NCBI RefSeq assembly: GCF_046105845.1
Contig: NZ_CP151004.1
Direction: 5' to 3' (one strand)
From: Escherichia coli
GTDB lineage: Bacteria; Pseudomonadota; Gammaproteobacteria; Enterobacterales; Enterobacteriaceae
Length of the DNA: 64,000 bases
Shown here: piece by piece, positions 1,470 to 62,007 of the stretch
How positions within the stretch are numbered: position 1 is the first letter of the stretch
Layout: each line of letters opens with the position of its first letter
The notes under the pieces: generated by a model
What the model saw: the letters and a program-made list of their open reading frames with translations, nothing else
What the model was told of the DNA's origin: nothing
The model's database searches: none
Made by a program: the position numbers and the translations under genes

Positions 1470-3404
1470 TTAAGACGATTTACGTACGCGCAAATACCAT
1501 TCGCACAGTAAACGCACCTGTTTACGGGTGTAGCCTTTTTCCATCATACGGTCGACAAAATCGTCGTGTTTCTTTTGCTCGTCGGTTGACGTTTTGGCGT
1601 TAAACGAAATAACCGGCAACAGCTCCTCGGTATTGGAGAACATTTTCTTCTCGATAACCGTGCGCAGTTTTTCATAGCTGGTCCAGTTCGGATTGCGTCC
1701 GCTGTTATTCGCTCTGGCGCGCAGTACGAAGTTAACAATCTCGTTGCGGAAATCTTTTGGATTACTGATCCCCGCCGGTTTCTCGATTTTCTCCAGCTCG
1801 GCGTTAAGAGACTCGCGGTCAAACAACTGCCCGGTATCCGGATCGCGATACTCCTGATCCTGAATCCAGAAATCCGCGTAGGTAACATAACGGTCGAAAA
1901 TGTTTTGCCCATATTCGGAATAGGATTCAAGGTAGGCCGTCTGGATCTCTTTGCCAATAAACTCGGCATATTTCGGGATCAGATAACCTTTCAGGAACTC
2001 CAGATAGCGTTCTGCCTGCTCTTGTGGGAACTGCTCGCGCTCGATCTGCTGTTCCAGGACGTAGAACAGATGGACCGGGTTTGCCGCCACTTCTACATGA
2101 TCGAAGTTGAACACGCGGGAGAGGATCTTAAACGCAAAACGCGTCGACAGACCGTTCATCCCTTCATCGACACCGGCGTAGTCACGATATTCCTGATACG
2201 ACTTGGCTTTGGGATCGGTGTCTTTCAGACTTTCGCCATCATAAACCCGCATCTTTGAATAAATGCTGGAGTTTTCTGGCTCTTTAAGGCGCGAAAGAAT
2301 GGAAAAACGTGACAGCGTTTCCAGCGTGCCAGGGGCGCAGGGGGCGTGAGTCAATTCACTGTGATTAAGCAATTTCTCGTAGATTTTGATCTCTTCGGAA
2401 ATGCGCAAGCAATACGGCACCTTCACGATGTAAACACGATCGAGGAAGGCTTCGTTGTTTTTGTTATTACGGAAAGTGACCCATTCGGATTCGTTCGAGT
2501 GGGCGAGAATAATCCCGTTGAACGGCAGGGCGGAGATACCTTCCGTCCCGTTGTAGTTACCTTCCTGAGTGGCGGTTAGCAAGGGATGCAGCACTTTAAT
2601 CGGTGCTTTAAACATCTCAACGAATTCCATGATCCCCTGGTTGGCGCGGCACAGTGCACCGGAATAGCCGTAGGCGTCCGGGTCATTCTGCGCGTAGTGT
2701 TCGAGTTTACGAATATCGACTTTCCCAACCAGCGCGGAGATGTCCTGGTTGTTCTCATCACCGGGTTCCGTTTTGGCGATAGCAATTTGTTGCAGAATTG
2801 ACGGCCAGACCTTCACTACCCGGAACTTAGTGATATCGCCACCAAATTCATGCAGGCGTTTTGCCGCCCACGGCGACATGATGGTGCCGAGATAACGGCG
2901 AGGAATGCCATACTCTTTTTCCAGAATCTGCGCATCTTCCTGCGGATTGAAAAGACAGAACGGATGATCGTTGACCGGGCTACGCTCACCGTTGGCGCTC
3001 AATACATAAATCGGTACGAGCTGCATTAATGATTTCAGTCGCTCAGCAAGCGATGATTTACCCCCACCCACAGGCCCCAGCAGATACAGGATTTGTTTCT
3101 TCTCTTCCAGCCCCTGAGCCGCGTGTTTCAGATAAGAGACAATCTGTTCAATCGCGTCTTCCATGCCGTAAAACTCTTCAAATGCCGGATAACGTGCTAT
3201 GACCCGGTTAGAAAAGAGTCGAGAAAGTCTGGGTTCCTGGGCTGTATCGACCATGACAGGCTCACCGATAGCCATCAATAGCCGCTCAGCCGCGTTGGCA
3301 TAAGCACTGCGATCTTGCCGACAAGTGGTAAGAAACTCCTGCAGTGTGAACTCTTCGTCCTTGGCAGCTTCATATCGCTGGCGATAGTGATCGAATATAT
3401 TCAT
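1470..3404 (-). CDS. yeaG: YeaG, PrkA-family serine protein kinase
   Basis: 644 aa ORF with P-loop (LLGPVGGGKSS); matches remembered YeaG; synteny. Confidence 0.9.
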   Translation of the reverse strand: MNIFDHYRQRYEAAKDEEFTLQEFLTTCRQDRSAYANAAERLLMAIGEPVMVDTAQEPRLSRLFSNRVIARYPAFEEFYGMEDAIEQIVSYLKHAAQGLEEKKQILYLLGPVGGGKSSLAERLKSLMQLVPIYVLSANGERSPVNDHPFCLFNPQEDAQILEKEYGIPRRYLGTIMSPWAAKRLHEFGGDITKFRVVKVWPSILQQIAIAKTEPGDENNQDISALVGKVDIRKLEHYAQNDPDAYGYSGALCRANQGIMEFVEMFKAPIKVLHPLLTATQEGNYNGTEGISALPFNGIILAHSNESEWVTFRNNKNNEAFLDRVYIVKVPYCLRISEEIKIYEKLLNHSELTHAPCAPGTLETLSRFSILSRLKEPENSSIYSKMRVYDGESLKDTDPKAKSYQEYRDYAGVDEGMNGLSTRFAFKILSRVFNFDHVEVAANPVHLFYVLEQQIEREQFPQEQAERYLEFLKGYLIPKYAEFIGKEIQTAYLESYSEYGQNIFDRYVTYADFWIQDQEYRDPDTGQLFDRESLNAELEKIEKPAGISNPKDFRNEIVNFVLRARANNSGRNPNWTSYEKLRTVIEKKMFSNTEELLPVISFNAKTSTDEQKKHDDFVDRMMEKGYTRKQVRLLCEWYLRVRKSS

Positions 3405-3507
3405 GGTATGCCGTCCTTTCGTTTTTTAGCACAGGTTAAGAGCCGTTCATATGAATAGTAGAGGCTCCCGGAAGAGGTAAACTGAACGACGTCTCTTGCT
3501 AAAACAC

Positions 3508-3523
3508 AGCAACTCTCATGCCA
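3508..3523 (-). promoter_or_regulatory. sigma54-type promoter motif (minus strand reads TGGCAT-N5-TTGCT) about 100 nt upstream of yeaG
   Basis: GG-N10-GC spacing read directly; yeaG is known to be nitrogen-starvation (NtrC) induced. Confidence 0.45.
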
Positions 3524-3839
3524 TTTTATCGACGATGAGAACAACGTGCCCGGTGATACACCTTCAAAATTAAGCGTAGATGGCAAATGGAAAACTTGCC
3601 TGCACGGCTTTCTTAATTTCAATGGCATATCAACAACTCATCCATAAATTTTGCATAATTAATGTAAAGACCAGGCTCGCCAGTAACGCTAAATTCATTT
3701 GGCTGTAAGCGCGGTGTCATCCGCGTCAGGAAAATTAAACAGTTACTTTAAAAAATGAAAACGTAAAAAGGTTGGGTTTCGATGTATTGACGGGTAAACT
3801 TTGTCGCCCGCTAAACATTTGTTTAAGGAATGATTAATT

Positions 3840-4586
3840 GTGACCAAACTCAAACTTCTGGCACTTGGAGTGCTTATCGCAACGTCTGCAGGCGTAGCGC
3901 ACGCTGAAGGTAAATTTTCCCTGGGCGCAGGCGTAGGTGTCGTTGAACACCCATATAAAGATTACGATACCGATGTTTACCCAGTACCGGTAATCAACTA
4001 TGAAGGCGATAACTTCTGGTTCCGTGGCTTAGGTGGTGGTTACTACCTGTGGAATGACGCAACGGATAAACTTTCAATTACCGCTTACTGGTCGCCGCTT
4101 TACTTCAAAGCGAAAGACAGTGGCGATCACCAAATGCGTCACCTGGATGACCGTAAGAGCACCATGATGGCTGGTCTGTCTTATGCTCACTTTACCCAGT
4201 ACGGTTACCTGCGTACCACCCTGGCTGGCGATACCCTGGATAACAGCAACGGCATTGTTTGGGATATGGCCTGGTTGTATCGTTACACCAACGGCGGCCT
4301 GACCGTGACCCCGGGTATCGGTGTGCAGTGGAACAGCGAAAACCAGAACGAATACTATTATGGCGTATCGCGCAAAGAGTCCGCTCGCAGCGGTCTGCGT
4401 GGCTATAACCCGAACGACAGCTGGAGCCCTTACCTGGAGCTGAGCGCCAGCTACAACTTCCTCGGCGACTGGAGTTTTTACGGTACCGCGCGCTACACCC
4501 GTCTGTCTGATGAAGTTACTGACAGCCCAATGGTGGATAAATCCTGGACTGGCCTGATTTCTACCGGGATCACCTACAAATTCTGA
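3840..4586 (+). CDS. mipA: MipA, MltA-interacting outer membrane protein
   Basis: 248 aa ORF with signal peptide, GTG start; ends YKF typical of outer membrane beta-barrel; matches MipA. Confidence 0.9.
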   Translation: MTKLKLLALGVLIATSAGVAHAEGKFSLGAGVGVVEHPYKDYDTDVYPVPVINYEGDNFWFRGLGGGYYLWNDATDKLSITAYWSPLYFKAKDSGDHQMRHLDDRKSTMMAGLSYAHFTQYGYLRTTLAGDTLDNSNGIVWDMAWLYRYTNGGLTVTPGIGVQWNSENQNEYYYGVSRKESARSGLRGYNPNDSWSPYLELSASYNFLGDWSFYGTARYTRLSDEVTDSPMVDKSWTGLISTGITYKF

Positions 4587-4616
4587 TAATGCATCTTTCC
4601 AGGGCATTTTGTGCAT

Positions 4617-4643
4617 AAAAACAGGGCGTCATGCCCTGTTTTG
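4617..4643 (+). terminator. rho-independent terminator after mipA
   Basis: hairpin AAAACAGGGC-gtcat-GCCCTGTTTT followed by T-rich run. Confidence 0.7.
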
Positions 4644-4675
4644 CATTACGGTGGTGCAATACCTGGGAGGAAACA

Positions 4676-5530
4676 ATGCAACAAAAAATGATTCAATTTA
4701 GTGGCGATGTCTCACTGCCAGCCATAGGGCAGGGAACATGGTATATGGGCGAAGATGCCAGTCAGCGTAAAACAGAAGTTGCTGCACTACGCGCGGGCAT
4801 TGAGCTCGGTTTAACCCTCATTGATACCGCCGAAATGTATGCCGAGGGCGGTGCCGAAATGGTGGTTGGGGAAGCATTAACCGGCCTACGTGAGAACGTC
4901 TTTCTCGTCTCTAAAGTCTATCCGTGGAATGCTGGCGGGCAAAAAGCGATAAATGCATGCGAAGCCAGTTTACGCCGTCTCAATACTGATTATCTCGATC
5001 TCTACTTATTACACTGGTCTGGCAGTTTCGCTTTTGAAGAGACTGTCGCAGCGATGGAAAAATTGATCGCCCAGGGAAAAATTCGCCGCTGGGGCGTTTC
5101 TAACCTTGATTATGCCGATATGCAGGAACTCTGGCAGCTGCCGGGGGGAAATCAGTGTGCCACTAATCAGGTGCTTTACCATCTCGGTTCACGAGGGATT
5201 GAGTACGATCTACTTCCCTGGTGCCAGCAACAATATATGCCAGTGATGGCTTACAGTCCATTAGCCCAGGCCGGGCGGTTGCGCAATGGACTGTTAAAAA
5301 ACGCGGTAGTCAACGAAATTGCACATGCTCACAATATCAGCTCGGCACAAGTATTGTTGGCGTGGGTGATCAGTCATCAGGGTGTGATGGCGATTCCAAA
5401 AGCGGCCACGATTGCCCATGTCCAACAAAATGCGGCTGTGCTTGAGGTCGAACTTTCATCAGCGGAATTAGCTATGCTGGATAAGGCATATCCGGCACCA
5501 AAAGGAAAAACTGCGCTGGATATGGTGTGA
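4676..5530 (+). CDS. yeaE: YeaE, aldo-keto reductase
   Basis: ORF trimmed to the ATG preceded by GGAGG (284 aa); AKR family; synteny. Confidence 0.85.
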   Translation: MQQKMIQFSGDVSLPAIGQGTWYMGEDASQRKTEVAALRAGIELGLTLIDTAEMYAEGGAEMVVGEALTGLRENVFLVSKVYPWNAGGQKAINACEASLRRLNTDYLDLYLLHWSGSFAFEETVAAMEKLIAQGKIRRWGVSNLDYADMQELWQLPGGNQCATNQVLYHLGSRGIEYDLLPWCQQQYMPVMAYSPLAQAGRLRNGLLKNAVVNEIAHAHNISSAQVLLAWVISHQGVMAIPKAATIAHVQQNAAVLEVELSSAELAMLDKAYPAPKGKTALDMV

Positions 5531-15460: not shown

Positions 15461-16219
15461 GTGGCGGCAAAAGACAGGATTCAGGCAATTAAGCAAATGG
15501 TTGCCAACGATAAAAAGGTGACAGTCTCAAATTTGAGTGGGATTTTTCAGGTAACCGAAGAAACCATTCGCCGCGATCTTGAGAAGCTGGAAGATGAAGG
15601 CTTTTTGACCAGAACCTATGGTGGTGCTGTTTTAAATACAGCGATGTTGACGGAGAATATCCATTTTTATAAGCGCGCTTCATCGTTTTATGAAGAGAAG
15701 CAGCTTATTGCACGCAAGGCACTATCCTTTATCGACAATAAAACCACTATGGCAGCCGATTCCAGTAGTACCGTTATGGAATTGCTCAAATTGTTGCAGG
15801 ACCGTAGTGACCTGACGTTGCTAACTAACTCGGCGGAAGCGATTCATGTTCTGGCTCAATCAGAAATTAAAGTCGTTTCAACGGGGGGGGAACTAAACAA
15901 AAATACACTTTCCCTGCAAGGAAGAATTACTAAAGAGATCATCAGCCGCTACCATGTCGATATCATGGTAATGAGTTGTAAAGGTCTTGATATTAACAGC
16001 GGCGCGCTGGACTCTAACGAAGCGGAAGCTGAAATCAAAAAGACAATGATCCGTCAGGCGACAGAGGTTGCGTTATTGGTTGATCACTCTAAGTTTGATC
16101 GCAAAGCTTTTGTCCAGTTAGCTGACTTTAGTCATATTAATTACATAATAACTGATAAATCACCGGGTGCAGAGTGGATAGCATTTTGCAAAGACAATAA
16201 TATCCAGCTGGTGTGGTAA
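15461..16219 (+). CDS. ydjF: YdjF, DeoR-family transcriptional regulator
   Basis: 252 aa, GTG start; N-terminal HTH and DeoR C-terminal domain. Confidence 0.88.
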   Translation: MAAKDRIQAIKQMVANDKKVTVSNLSGIFQVTEETIRRDLEKLEDEGFLTRTYGGAVLNTAMLTENIHFYKRASSFYEEKQLIARKALSFIDNKTTMAADSSSTVMELLKLLQDRSDLTLLTNSAEAIHVLAQSEIKVVSTGGELNKNTLSLQGRITKEIISRYHVDIMVMSCKGLDINSGALDSNEAEAEIKKTMIRQATEVALLVDHSKFDRKAFVQLADFSHINYIITDKSPGAEWIAFCKDNNIQLVW

Positions 16220-53697: not shown

Positions 53698-54540
53698 ATG
53701 ATGCAGCCAGTGATTAACGCGCCGGAAATTGCCACTGCCCGAGAACAGCAGTTGTTTAATGGCAAAAACTTCCATGTGTTTATCTATAACAAAACTGAGA
53801 GTATCAGCGGACTGCATCAGCACGACTATTATGAATTTACTCTGGTATTAACCGGGCGTTATTTCCAGGAGATTAACGGTAAGCGCGTGTTACTGGAACG
53901 GGGCGATTTTGTTTTTATTCCGTTAGGTTCGCACCATCAAAGTTTTTATGAGTTTGGTGCCACGCGTATATTGAACGTTGGGATCAGTAAACGCTTTTTT
54001 GAGCAGCATTACCTGCCGTTGTTGCCTTATTGCTTTGTCGCTTCGCAGGTATACCGGACCAATAACGCTTTTCTCACCTATGTGGAAACAGTGATTTCTT
54101 CATTGAATTTCCGCGAAACAGGGCTGGAAGAGTTTGTTGAGATGGTTACTTTTTATGTCATTAACCGTTTACGTCATTACCGCGAAGAACAGGTGATTGA
54201 TGATGTACCGCAGTGGCTGAAAAGTACGGTAGAAAAGATGCATGATAAAGAGCAGTTTAGTGAATCGGCGCTGGAGAATATGGTGACGTTGTCAGCCAAA
54301 TCACAGGAATATTTGACGCGAGCGACTCAACGATATTATGGCAAAACACCAATGCAGATTATTAATGAGATCCGTATTAATTTTGCCAAAAAACAACTGG
54401 AAATGACCAACTATTCCGTGACGGATATTGCGTTTGAGGCCGGTTATAGTAGCCCGAGCTTGTTTATTAAAACGTTTAAGAAATTAACGTCCTTTACGCC
54501 TAAGAGCTATCGTAAGAAATTGACTGAATTTAATCAGTAA
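53698..54540 (+). CDS. chbR: ChbR, AraC-family regulator of the chb operon
   Basis: 280 aa; C-terminal AraC HTH. Confidence 0.92.
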
Positions 54541-59074: not shown

Positions 59075-59277
59075 TGAACTCGTCTCCTTAACTTATTACT
59101 GAAAGGGCCGCTGTTTTGGTCAAAAAACCCTCTAAATATAGACCATCAGCCAGATCCCGCTTCGGAGACTATTCTGGAAACGGTGTTATGAAATACACGC
59201 AAAGCGGGACGTACAGGGGCTAAATCGGCTAAACTACAGTTTTTCTGATTTTTAATATGCGTTTAGTGAAGCCAGTA

Positions 59278-59520
59278 ATGAAGAAACCGCTCCGTCAGCA
59301 AAACCGCCAGATTATTAGCTATGTCCCACGCACGGAACCCGCGCCGCCAGAACATGCGATAAAGATGGATTCGTTTCGTGATGTCTGGATGCTGCGTGGC
59401 AAATATGTTGCGTTTGTACTGATGGGAGAGTCATTTCTGCGCTCACCGGCGTTTACTGTGCCTGAATCCGCCCAGCGTTGGGCAAATCAGATCCGCCAGG
59501 AAGGGGAAGTGACTGAGTAA
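59278..59520 (+). CDS. cedA: CedA, cell division modulator
   Basis: 80 aa from MKKPLRQQNRQ (track ORF starts 59257). Confidence 0.85.
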   Translation: MKKPLRQQNRQIISYVPRTEPAPPEHAIKMDSFRDVWMLRGKYVAFVLMGESFLRSPAFTVPESAQRWANQIRQEGEVTE

Positions 59521-59808
59521 AGATTACGTACCTCCCGGTTTTGCCGGGAGTTACATGACCTGAAATTCTGTATTTCATTGCTACATTCATTCAAACCACC
59601 TGTAACAAAAAGCTGCCTTTGACGATCTATTGCTATAAATAAGTGAACTTTTTTCTTTAATTGTTTATTTATTTTAAAATGGTTAAATTTTGCTAATCAT
59701 GATGAGCTATTTTTGATAGTTCATCCTGTGGCGTCGCTCTTAAACTTATATTGTAAATGACTTAGATTTAAATGAGATAATAATTTTGTTAACAATATGA
59801 GGCGGGAG

Positions 59809-60612
59809 ATGCTTTCTACAAACTTAATACAGAGTAATTATGGTGATTTAAATATTAAAAGCCTGGCTTTCGACTCTTTTAAAGAAAGGCTGCAGTCTAC
59901 TATGACAGCACTCACTTTCTTTATATCAACGGGTCAATGTGCCTGCGATGAAATAGCAGAATCAAACTTCAATTATATGATTGCCTATATGTCTAACATT
60001 AACTATGATGCCTCAAAGCCAGGAGCGCCAGCACTTAGTTTTGATACATATCTGCAGGACAATGTTAAATATAGAGTGATAATTAATAATCTTTATGGTA
60101 GTGAAATTAGGATAAGAGGTATTAATGAGAATTTTGTTGGGATGGATTTTACCTGTGAATTCCGACCAGAAAAAATGACCAATTTGATCAATATAAAAAA
60201 CAGGTTGGTTATTCACTATTTAAGAACGATATACTATGAACAAAATTATATACATCCTGTTGGGAGCATTTTTGCTGCGATTCAAAAAAATGAGAGTCTC
60301 CTAAAGTTTCCTTCGGTAATATCAATGCTTAATGTCAATCTTCTTTTTAATCCACTGAATCTTCCGGGAATGGGAAGTGGTGTGCTTGAAGAGATTATGA
60401 GTATTTCAGATAGTTCACTTAGAAAACGTCTTGGGTATGAGGTTTTAAGCTTTTCGCTACAGGCACATTCATTGAGTCAGGAATGTATCGATAAGTTAGC
60501 CATTTTTTTCGCTGACGATCTGTTTAAATATGAGTCAGTATGCATCGCCGCGATGGAACATTTAAAAAGTAAGGCAACGGCTCCTATACAAAACGGACCG
60601 TTGCCAGCATAA
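59809..60612 (+). CDS. ydjO: YdjO, uncharacterised protein in a very AT-rich region
   Basis: 267 aa from MLSTNLIQ (track ORF starts 59797); synteny. Confidence 0.75.
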   Translation: MLSTNLIQSNYGDLNIKSLAFDSFKERLQSTMTALTFFISTGQCACDEIAESNFNYMIAYMSNINYDASKPGAPALSFDTYLQDNVKYRVIINNLYGSEIRIRGINENFVGMDFTCEFRPEKMTNLINIKNRLVIHYLRTIYYEQNYIHPVGSIFAAIQKNESLLKFPSVISMLNVNLLFNPLNLPGMGSGVLEEIMSISDSSLRKRLGYEVLSFSLQAHSLSQECIDKLAIFFADDLFKYESVCIAAMEHLKSKATAPIQNGPLPA

Positions 60613-60615
60613 GAA

Positions 60616-62007
60616 TTAACGGTGTGCCAGTTCGGCGTCGTCTTCGCTATCCAGAATGGCTTTATCGGTTTGCTTCAGCCACTGGCTGGTCAGCGTGCCA
60701 GCGGTCATCGAGCCACTAACGTTTAGCGCCGTACGCCCCATGTCGATAAGCGGTTCAACGGAGATTAACAGCGCCACCAGGGTTACTGGCAGGCCCATCG
60801 CAGGCAGCACAATCAGTGCGGCGAAAGTTGCACCACCACCGACACCGGCAACGCCTGCGGAACTAACGGTAACAATACCGACCAGCGTCGCAATCCACAT
60901 CGGGTCCATCGGGTTAATGCCAACCGTAGGCGCAACCATCACCGCCAGCATCGCCGGATACAAACCGGCACAGCCGTTCTGACCAATGGTTGCACCGAAA
61001 GAGGCGGCGAAACTGGCGATGGATTCAGGAACACCCAGACGACGCGTTTGTGCTTCCACATTCAGTGGGATAGACGCAGCACTGGAACGGCTGGTAAAGG
61101 CAAACGTCAGTACTGGCCATACCTTACGGAAGTACTTCAGCGGGCTCACGCCATTAATACCCAGCAGAAGGCCATGCACTGCAAACATAATCAGAAGACC
61201 GAGGTAGGACGCGACAACGAAACTTCCCAGTTTGATGATGTCTTGCAGGTTAGAACCTGCAACCACTTTGGTCATCAGCGCCAGAACGCCGTAAGGGGTC
61301 AACTGCATGACCAGGCGAACCAGCTTCATTACCCAGCTTTGCAGGGTATCGATAGCGGTTAAGACGCGTTCACCTTTCGGGGCATCATCCTTCAGCAGTT
61401 TCAGCGCAGCTACACCGAGGAATGCGGCAAAAATTACCACGCTGATAATTGACGTCGGATTGGCTCCGGTCAGATCGGCAAACGGGTTTTTCGGGATAAA
61501 GGACAAGACCAGCTGCGGAACGCTCAGGTCAGAGACTTTACCAACATAGTTACTTTCAATGGCGTTCAGACGTGCAGTTTCTGCACCACCCTGAACCAGA
61601 CCTTCAGCCGTCAAACCAAACAGGTTGGTGACCAGCACACCGACCAGCGCCGCAATCAGCGTGGTAAACAAAAGCGTACCGATGGTCAGAAAACTGATTT
61701 TGCCTAACTGAGATGCGTTATGCAGACGGGCAACCGCGCTCAGAATAGAGGCGAAGACTAACGGCATAACGATCATTTGCAGCAGTTGAACATAGCCGTT
61801 ACCAACAATGTTAAACCACTGTACAGAATCTTTAAGTACCTGGCTGTCAGAACCATAAATGGTATGCAGGGCAAGGCCAAAAACCACACCCATCACCAGA
61901 CCCACCAGCACTTTTTTCGCCAGACTCCACTGTTTATGGCGGGTCTGAGCCAGCGCAAACAGCAGTACAACGAACACCACGATGTTCGCAATTAATGGAA
62001 AGTTCAT
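60616..62007 (-). CDS. tcyP: TcyP (YdjN), L-cystine:cation symporter of the DAACS family
   Basis: 463 aa multi-TM. Confidence 0.9.

Follow-up and report, generated by a model that had tools for sequence, protein, structure and literature searches.

Several kinds of described genomic features bear on the ydjO locus of Escherichia coli. The promoter islands of strain K-12 are stretches of at least 300 bp in which promoter-like sites are abnormally dense, and the ydjO/cedA spacer of this strain is one of the 78 islands on record (listed as 1811053_320; PMC3661553, Panyukov and Ozoline); two prediction methods assign it a foreign origin, and H-NS occupies it in two K-12 data sets (PMC3661553). 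Genomic SELEX in K-12 detected within this spacer binding of the RpoD holoenzyme, with the predicted promoter ATGACT-16-AATAAT, and an H-NS site (PMC3946193), and a peak of the RpoS holoenzyme has been reported at the 5' end of ydjO (PMC5493296). The AT-richness of ydjO, its predicted foreign origin and the binding of H-NS and RNA polymerase are thus already part of the K-12 literature, and ydjO is a real but ordinary, published example of an acquired 'silenced' gene.

Like the H-NS-silenced xenogeneic islets, ydjO is AT-rich, inserted, reported to bind H-NS, poorly adapted in its codon usage, dispensable and variably present; unlike the typical members of this class, it is a single gene that comes without an integrase, a tRNA site, flanking repeats or an identifiable donor, and its spacer is unusually conserved. 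With the bacterial ORFan genes ydjO shares AT-richness, short to medium length, fast evolution and the lack of a homologue beyond a narrow clade (~15 billion proteins), whereas it differs from ORFans in general in that the insertion boundaries, an ancestral empty allele and a very divergent allele in Escherichia albertii can be identified. The YjfZ and YahL proteins of the DUF2686 family resemble YdjO in size (264-271 aa), are also taxonomically restricted and uncharacterised, and have been proposed jointly with YdjO as qPCR markers, but show no sequence similarity to it. Kinship with YahL or YjfZ was rejected on the grounds that BLASTP of YdjO against the K-12 proteins gave nothing below E = 2 and no match to DUF2686 was obtained.

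The window analyzed here, a stretch of 64,000 nucleotides, comes from an E. coli chromosome: the cedA-ydjO-tcyP locus (59100-60700) was matched in 5424 of the 5426 complete E. coli genomes, with the soil strain VCSW7 as the best match (99.6%), and within the species the ydjO locus is present in a single copy. In closely related E. coli genomes, katE, cedA, ydjO and tcyP are annotated in RefSeq at the corresponding positions, so the names cedA, ydjO and tcyP, which an earlier note had given to these genes from the letters alone, are right. The annotated start of ydjO is at 59809, the RefSeq start in both VCSW7 and K-12, and not at the ATG further upstream, at 59797. The gene is the sole ORF of the cassette described below, and its stop codon lies 3 nt from that of tcyP. 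The strain is not K-12, to which all the H-NS and RNA polymerase binding data pertain. In K-12, the same gene (b1730) occupies the same place; 14 of the 267 residues of the protein and 5 of the 288 positions of the cedA-ydjO interval (59521-59808) differ, and the promoter hexamers of ydjO are identical. Of 34 nucleotide differences from K-12, 15 are concentrated in one local patch. The features of the locus are collected in Table 1.

Table 1. Features of the cedA-ydjO-tcyP region, in window coordinates
Feature	Positions	Strand	Basis and remarks
Left junction: last six cedA codons and stop	59503..59520	+	Alignment with the spacers of empty-site E. coli (L001), other Escherichia, Citrobacter, Salmonella and Enterobacter
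GC-rich hairpin just past the cedA stop, CCTCCCGG-TTT-GCCGGGAG	59532..59550	+	RNA fold -20.3 kcal/mol, z -3.8
Very AT-rich spacer, 24-30% GC, with A/T tracts	59554..59796	.	Counterpart of the K-12 promoter island ydjO/cedA and of the reported H-NS region (PMC3661553, PMC3946193)
Direct repeat TGACGATCTATT, left deletion endpoint in MOD1-EC7003	59620..59631	+	Repeat family D3; the MOD1-EC7003 locus joins this repeat to its partner
Sigma-70 promoter-like site for ydjO, ATGACT-16-AATAAT	59757..59784	+	Consensus scan; hexamers as in PMC3946193; identical in K-12
Shine-Dalgarno sequence GAGG of ydjO, 6-nt spacer, ATG	59799..59811	+	Sequence; RefSeq start in VCSW7 and K-12
ydjO coding sequence	59809..60612	+	267 aa; soluble, pI 5.6, no transmembrane segment
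Direct repeat TGACGATCTGTT, right deletion endpoint in MOD1-EC7003	60513..60524	+	Sequence of the MOD1-EC7003 locus
Hairpin followed by UUACUUUUUAAAU, in the tcyP sense; likely tcyP terminator	60573..60605	-	RNA fold -18.7 kcal/mol, z -3.5

The segment 59530-60612 has a GC content of 34.5%, against 49.6% for the whole window, and is essentially the most GC-poor stretch of 1083 nt in it: only 0.1% of the sliding windows of this length are as low, and all of these overlap the ydjO locus. The cedA-ydjO spacer (59521-59796) has 30.4% GC and the annotated ydjO coding sequence (59809-60612) 35.4%, compared to 51.9% for katE, 51.9% for cedA and 52.9% for tcyP. A profile in steps of 100 nt shows GC dropping from 0.55 to 0.24-0.28 between 59550 and 59850 and abruptly regaining 0.54 at 60600. 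When the 47 non-overlapping ORFs of the window with 150 aa or more are compared, the ydjO ORF has the lowest GC (0.359; next, 0.416), the lowest GC3 (0.327; next, 0.380), the lowest CAI (0.160; next, 0.191; Sharp and Li weights, after the Biopython table) and the highest fraction of rare codons (0.118). The description of the locus as markedly AT-rich relative to katE and tcyP, with atypical codons, which the earlier note proposed to check by computing GC and CAI, is borne out by these values, the GC content lying outside the normal range.

The genomic context of ydjO was assessed with a scan for CedA in one genome per species, which yielded 54 loci; cedA and tcyP are convergent neighbors in 50 species-level genomes. 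The spacing between the two genes is 50-110 nt in most species and 148-911 nt in seven. The convergent arrangement is shared by Citrobacter, Salmonella, Enterobacter, Kluyvera, Klebsiella, Leclercia, Atlantibacter and other genera and, within Escherichia, by E. whittamii and three more lineages; in the six loci from other genera whose spacers were inspected, the spacer contains an A-run, a GC hairpin and a T-run, that is, a bidirectional terminator. No remnant of ydjO was detected in any non-Escherichia cedA locus among those scanned. An empty allele, with the ancestral spacer and the ancestral cedA ending, is present in 1124 of the 5426 complete E. coli genomes (20.7%), including CFT073, S88, clone D i14 and a Nissle derivative, all of which we take to belong to phylogroup B2; the full ydjO allele is present in 4255 genomes of the same set.

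Given that the ydjO allele departs from the empty allele at ~59503, within cedA, and rejoins it at the stop codon of tcyP, the empty allele is ancestral. The ydjO allele carries ~1.1 kb in place of ~60 nt; it replaces the spacer and the last six cedA codons, and the end of CedA is accordingly allele-specific, ...QEGEVTE in the ydjO allele, an ending of the type also found in E. albertii, versus ...QENEVEE in the empty allele. Judging from these alignments, the cassette is an insertion or replacement at the orthologous cedA-tcyP site. The claim that ydjO was acquired therefore holds, the orthologous site being a short terminator spacer in other genera, in a further four species of Escherichia and in the one fifth of E. 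coli genomes mentioned above; the cassette starts, however, ~27 nt before the interval proposed for the AT-rich locus (59530-60612), within cedA. The phylogenetic distribution, another of the proposed checks, places ydjO exclusively in Escherichia and shows that it is not universal even in E. coli. With exact boundaries and a surviving ancestral allele, the locus is a clean small example of a foreign single gene lodging in a convergent terminator.

Neither terminal inverted repeats nor flanking target duplications were found at 59503 and 60612, and the cassette encodes no transposase, integrase or other recombinase, so a mobile-element signature is absent from it. A 21-nt similarity (81%) between the left junction (59491-59511) and an internal segment of ydjO (60359-60379) was judged to be probably due to chance. 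A plasmid origin was rejected when the three 'plasmid' matches proved to be mislabelled chromosomes of 4.8-4.9 Mb, and a phage origin was rejected for lack of any phage match to ydjO; a tblastn search of YdjO against 50,697 phage records gave none. Since no donor was found, the case for horizontal transfer is built on the insertion pattern and the base composition.

The scenario that we favor, and consider quite probable, is that the locus is a xenogeneic single-gene cassette of ~1.1 kb (~59503-60612) that replaced the ancestral spacer, is suppressed by H-NS and carries a real but dispensable gene. Under this scenario, a foreign cassette would in part of Escherichia have displaced the short spacer, with its terminator hairpin, that separates the convergent genes cedA and tcyP, bringing with it terminator-like hairpins for both neighbors, a sigma-70 promoter within an extremely AT-rich upstream region, a ribosome-binding site and the 267-codon gene. 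During ordinary growth, H-NS would nucleate on the AT-rich spacer and spread across the AT-rich ydjO, such that RNA polymerase could still bind the ydjO promoter while productive transcription is suppressed and the gene stays largely silent. The gene would then have been lost repeatedly, through frameshifts, microhomology deletion and insertion of IS elements.

The part of this scenario that concerns H-NS draws on data from K-12. The spacer of that strain is reported to be bound by H-NS both in compilations of ChIP-chip data and in genomic SELEX (PMC3661553, PMC3946193), in agreement with the earlier note, which had suggested H-NS ChIP data sets as a check of probable silencing; the mapping of the old K-12 coordinates onto the spacer of the window is approximate and inferred. 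The sequence proxies, namely A/T tracts of at least four bases and TpA steps, both about twice as frequent in the locus as on average in the window, agree with the reported occupancy. A search for the high-affinity H-NS motif TCGATAAATT with at most two mismatches is uninformative, given that it returned 108 sites across the window against ~74 expected by chance, with three in the ydjO locus. Sites resembling sigma-70 promoters are not in excess (4 against 4.2 expected) in a simple scan for two hexamers, the method that defines the promoter island class being PlatProm. No statement on its expression in hns mutants was found in the searchable papers that mention ydjO, and we infer silencing by H-NS from the K-12 binding data and general knowledge of H-NS.

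The history of the cassette within Escherichia can be traced through three unusual alleles. In E. albertii, the same junction is followed by a heavily diverged AT-rich spacer and then by an open frame of at least 119 codons, cut off by the contig end, whose product shares 40% identity with residues 22-135 of YdjO (E = 2e-23), compared to 92% identity for CedA. This fragment shows no similarity at the nucleotide level to any complete E. coli genome searched, and a protein search with it as the query retrieved a single match, a fragment of 79 aa. In Escherichia sp. MOD1-EC7003 (L004), the flanks are of the ydjO type, the region between two 12-nt direct repeats is gone and only codons 236-267 of ydjO are retained; this loss of ydjO is a secondary (microhomology) deletion. 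Finally, in the E. coli allele P0005 (locus L058), the last 100 residues of YdjO are identical to those of the window, identity drops to ~66% within residues 1-165 and also within the promoter-proximal 60 nt, and the dS of the N-terminal part is 0.9 against 0.04-0.13 in the flanking genes; this allele is a mosaic imported from a deeply diverged ydjO lineage. On the strength of these three alleles, the cassette is old relative to the diversification of E. coli and has been transferred by homologous recombination. Even so, its insertion postdates the genus-level and enterobacterial ancestor, so that the word 'anciently' in the earlier description of the acquisition stands in a relative sense (dS of up to ~0.9 within E. 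coli and a 40% identical copy in E. albertii).

YdjO is a protein of 267 aa and 30 kDa, with a pI of 5.6 and no hydrophobic segment of transmembrane strength in its hydropathy profile. Sequence searches of Pfam, NCBIfam, PADLOC, PHROGs and PDB yielded no match (at E up to 1 for Pfam, PADLOC and PHROGs), a search of 5.8 billion protein clusters recovered E. coli sequences only, and a full HMMER pass over 1.84 billion representative proteins recovered only E. coli fragments and one artefact. An apparent distant homologue (P0034; 26% identity, E = 9e-35) was discarded: swapping A and G in the ydjO gene of the window reproduces 243 of its residues, which identifies it as corrupted data rather than a relative. 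That a purine-swapped copy of the gene in a public protein library can mimic a distant homologue calls for caution in searches with orphan genes. An AlphaFold2 model obtained from an alignment of 8 sequences (pLDDT 67) predicts an N-terminal domain (residues 18-142; pLDDT ~80) composed of two helices, five strands and one helix, followed by a helical, less certain C-terminal half. A search of BFVD with this model gave no match at E up to 0.001, and no significant structural match, including to known defence or effector domains, was obtained with the model, whose confidence is moderate. This missing structural match counts as weak evidence, given that the model is only moderately confident. In sequence, and apparently also in structure to the extent that a model of moderate confidence can tell, YdjO is thus an orphan, and its designation as a gene of unknown function stands, with no family, defence, phage, plasmid or structural match.

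Two features of this orphan, its deep allelic divergence and its presence/absence polymorphism, raise the issue of a conflict-type function, which is where the residual interest of the locus lies. YdjO could be a fast-evolving conflict protein, acting for example in single-gene anti-phage defence, as an effector or as an orphan immunity protein, that is maintained by balancing or diversifying selection and kept quiet by H-NS until needed. AT-rich, H-NS-bound single-gene islets are typical of conflict genes, and the within-species polymorphism, the mosaic alleles with a dS of 0.9 in the N-terminal two thirds, the local patch of differences from K-12 and the contrast between YdjO and CedA in E. 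albertii would all be accounted for. We nevertheless regard this possibility as unlikely: there is no match in PADLOC or PHROGs and none in structure to known defence or effector domains, ydjO has no partner gene, its frequent inactivation suggests little benefit, and the dN/dS values for pairs of alleles are 0.13-0.35, apart from 0.78 in one near-identical pair separated by about two differences, and give no sign of positive selection at the level of the gene. The bolder version of the same idea, in which YdjO is the founder of an unrecognised Escherichia-restricted family of conflict proteins, with the deep alleles and the polymorphism kept by selection rather than drift and with H-NS as the off-switch, seems to us quite unlikely.

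Comparison of intact alleles also bears on whether ydjO encodes a protein at all. The dN/dS is 0.24 overall and 0.18 in the deeply diverged N-terminal part, in which the window and the mosaic allele differ by 59 non-synonymous and 52 synonymous changes (dN 0.166, dS 0.907). By comparison, the dN/dS is 0.024 for katE and 0.039 for tcyP, and the dN of ydjO is ~17-20 times that of these neighbors. The overall dN/dS marks ydjO as a genuine, if weakly constrained, coding gene. Alleles whose synonymous sites are saturated with changes still retain the frame, and the chance of an open frame of 267 codons (804 nt) in DNA of 35% GC is ~3e-9 by hand calculation. Loss is also common: of the seven further alleles sampled, three are annotated as frameshifted or containing internal stops, one allele is truncated by an IS5-family element, and clusters of truncated YdjO comprise ~2700 members compared to 8291 for the full-length protein. 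Insertions of IS10 and other insertion sequences in ydjO are on record (PMC10044804, PMC3486847). From these sequence comparisons, ydjO is a real coding gene that is under weak purifying selection and dispensable.

The pseudogene alleles, together with the very low CAI, the lack of a homologue or a recognisable fold, and the fact that the published phenotypes of ydjO are correlations only, would also fit a young or decaying proto-gene, that is, an incidental frame in AT-rich non-coding DNA or in a degraded arrival, with no protein function. This reading is decidedly improbable given the dN/dS of 0.18-0.28 between deeply diverged alleles, the retention of the 804-nt frame despite saturated synonymous divergence (and of at least 119 codons in E. 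albertii), the good Shine-Dalgarno sequence at the correct spacing, and the pLDDT of ~80 that AlphaFold2 reaches for residues 18-142 from just 8 sequences.

The non-coding parts of the cassette are of interest in their own right. The hairpin that follows cedA is terminator-like, with a weak U-tract, and was missed by a strict terminator scan. The hairpin and U-rich tail at the other end likely constitute the terminator of tcyP, situated within the last 13 codons of ydjO, so that the insert supplies replacement terminators for both neighbors, cedA and tcyP. In serum-treated ExPEC, the ydjO signal drops jointly with that of tcyP, which is regulated by CysB (PMC4145685); this joint fall is probably due to the location of the tcyP terminator inside the 3' end of ydjO. 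An Rfam search of the locus returned only a sub-threshold snoRNA match, attributed to chance. Among ordinary E. coli alleles, the mean pairwise difference in the spacer is 0.022, compared to synonymous divergence of 0.04-0.13 in the flanking genes; this conservation hints at a function beyond passive silencing and may reflect a regulatory or structural constraint.

It could accordingly be proposed that the selected feature is the DNA rather than the protein, namely an H-NS nucleation site, a promoter island and a terminator module shielding the converging cedA and tcyP transcripts from each other. The spacer conservation, the hairpins for both neighbors with one of them lying in the 3' end of ydjO, the joint fall of the ydjO and tcyP signals in serum (PMC4145685), and the retention of exactly both ends of the cassette in the MOD1-EC7003 deletion remnant are all in line with such a role. 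As an explanation of the locus it is very improbable: one fifth of E. coli genomes and all outgroups have a short spacer (mostly ~50-110 nt) with one terminator hairpin, and the purifying selection on the coding sequence is left unexplained. The remaining option, that ydjO is ancestral to Enterobacteriaceae and was deleted elsewhere, with AT-richness a local property, can point to the secondary deletion in the MOD1-EC7003 lineage but is scarcely credible, as the empty sites are not scars and share across genera a homologous terminator and cedA ending (NE..E) that are both missing from the ydjO allele, and as non-Escherichia loci contain no ydjO remnant and no homologue exists elsewhere.

Two reports, a correlation of ydjO with H2 production in LTEE lines (PMC10997342) and a synonymous ydjO mutation in a lactate-evolved line (PMC2784333), give no functional lead for YdjO. 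The gene has further been put forward as a signature marker conserved in E. coli/Shigella, for use in water-quality qPCR, and the YdjO assay came last in that study both in detection rate and in correlation with culture counts (PMC11057252). This weak performance would fit the absence of ydjO from many strains: with the gene missing from 20.7% of complete genomes, including those of major extraintestinal pathogenic strains, ydjO qPCR would under-count such strains. The distribution described here contradicts the use of ydjO as a marker (PMC11057252), ydjO not being a conserved signature of E. coli.

The ancestral cedA-tcyP spacer, which lacks ydjO (the AT-rich orphan gene between cedA and tcyP), is retained in 1124 of the 5426 complete E. 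coli genomes (20.7%), including those of CFT073, S88, clone D i14 and Nissle. The gene has been put forward as a qPCR marker for E. coli (PMC11057252); given the frequency of the empty allele, it is therefore not a universal marker of the species. Where present, ydjO is a recurrent target of insertion sequences. In strain NH-21, it is hit by an IS5-family ISKpn26-like element; trpA/trpB adjoin this insertion, implying that a large rearrangement has taken place. Previous reports describe a K-12 line evolved under heat, with IS10 inserted at codon 175, and O104:H4, in which an insertion sequence interrupts ydjO (PMC10044804; PMC3486847).

Coordinates of features at the ydjO locus and of low-GC open reading frames in the window
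Feature	Sequence	Coordinates	Strand	Remark
Empty cedA-tcyP allele, example	L001 (NZ_OZ040192.1)	1893-1985		
IS-truncated ydjO	L003 (strain NH-21)	3437-4490		
ydjO-like open frame	L006 (E. albertii NBRC 107761)	4466-4822		syntenic; reaches contig end
Mosaic ydjO allele	L058 (GCA_025283635.1)	3950-4500		compared with window 59745-60300
AT-rich cedA-ydjO spacer	window	59521-59808		
21-nt direct repeat, 81% identical	window	59491-59511; 60359-60379		left insertion junction in cedA; internal ydjO sequence
Difference-rich 100-nt bin	window	60109-60208		ydjO nucleotides 300-399; YdjO residues about 101-133
tcyP terminator-like hairpin and U-rich tail	window	60560-60618	minus	within last 13 codons of ydjO
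Moderately low-GC ORFs	window	25744-29375; 53698-54540; 15497-16219		GC 0.42-0.45; GC3 0.38-0.48

The AT-rich spacer upstream of ydjO shows a mean pairwise difference of 0.022 among E. coli alleles and is more conserved than the synonymous sites of katE, tcyP and cedA (0.04-0.13). Such conservation would not be expected if the spacer were foreign DNA under passive silencing. The mosaic allele, L058, is nearly identical to the window in its upstream spacer and last 100 codons and deeply divergent (dS 0.9) in the first 165 codons and in the 60 nt next to the promoter. This allele does not retain the predicted -35/-10 hexamers. The ydjO sequences of the window and K-12 differ at 34 nucleotides, 15 of which lie within a single 100-nt bin. 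This bin corresponds either to a hypervariable segment or to a small patch of recombination. The E. albertii frame encodes a product with 40% identity to YdjO; given the absence of its full-length product from a protein collection of 5.8 billion clusters, this frame may usually be disrupted or uncalled.

At the left junction, the position of the direct repeat coincides exactly with the allele breakpoint; its similarity to the ydjO interior is probably due to chance. At the opposite end, the stop codons of ydjO and tcyP are 3 nt apart. Together with the terminator-like hairpin of tcyP inside the ydjO end, this arrangement suggests that the joint decrease of ydjO and tcyP (ydjN) in published serum arrays (PMC4145685) reflects antisense read-through rather than co-regulation.

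A 299 aa protein (P0034) in a library of 1.84 billion representatives scores 26% identity to YdjO but was rejected as a homologue: it is E. coli ydjO (cf. window 59809-60612) translated after swapping every A and G. Its source is a corrupted public data set, and such entries can misdirect searches on orphan genes.

Other ORFs, in three intervals of the window, have moderately low GC content and low GC3 values compared to the rest of the window.
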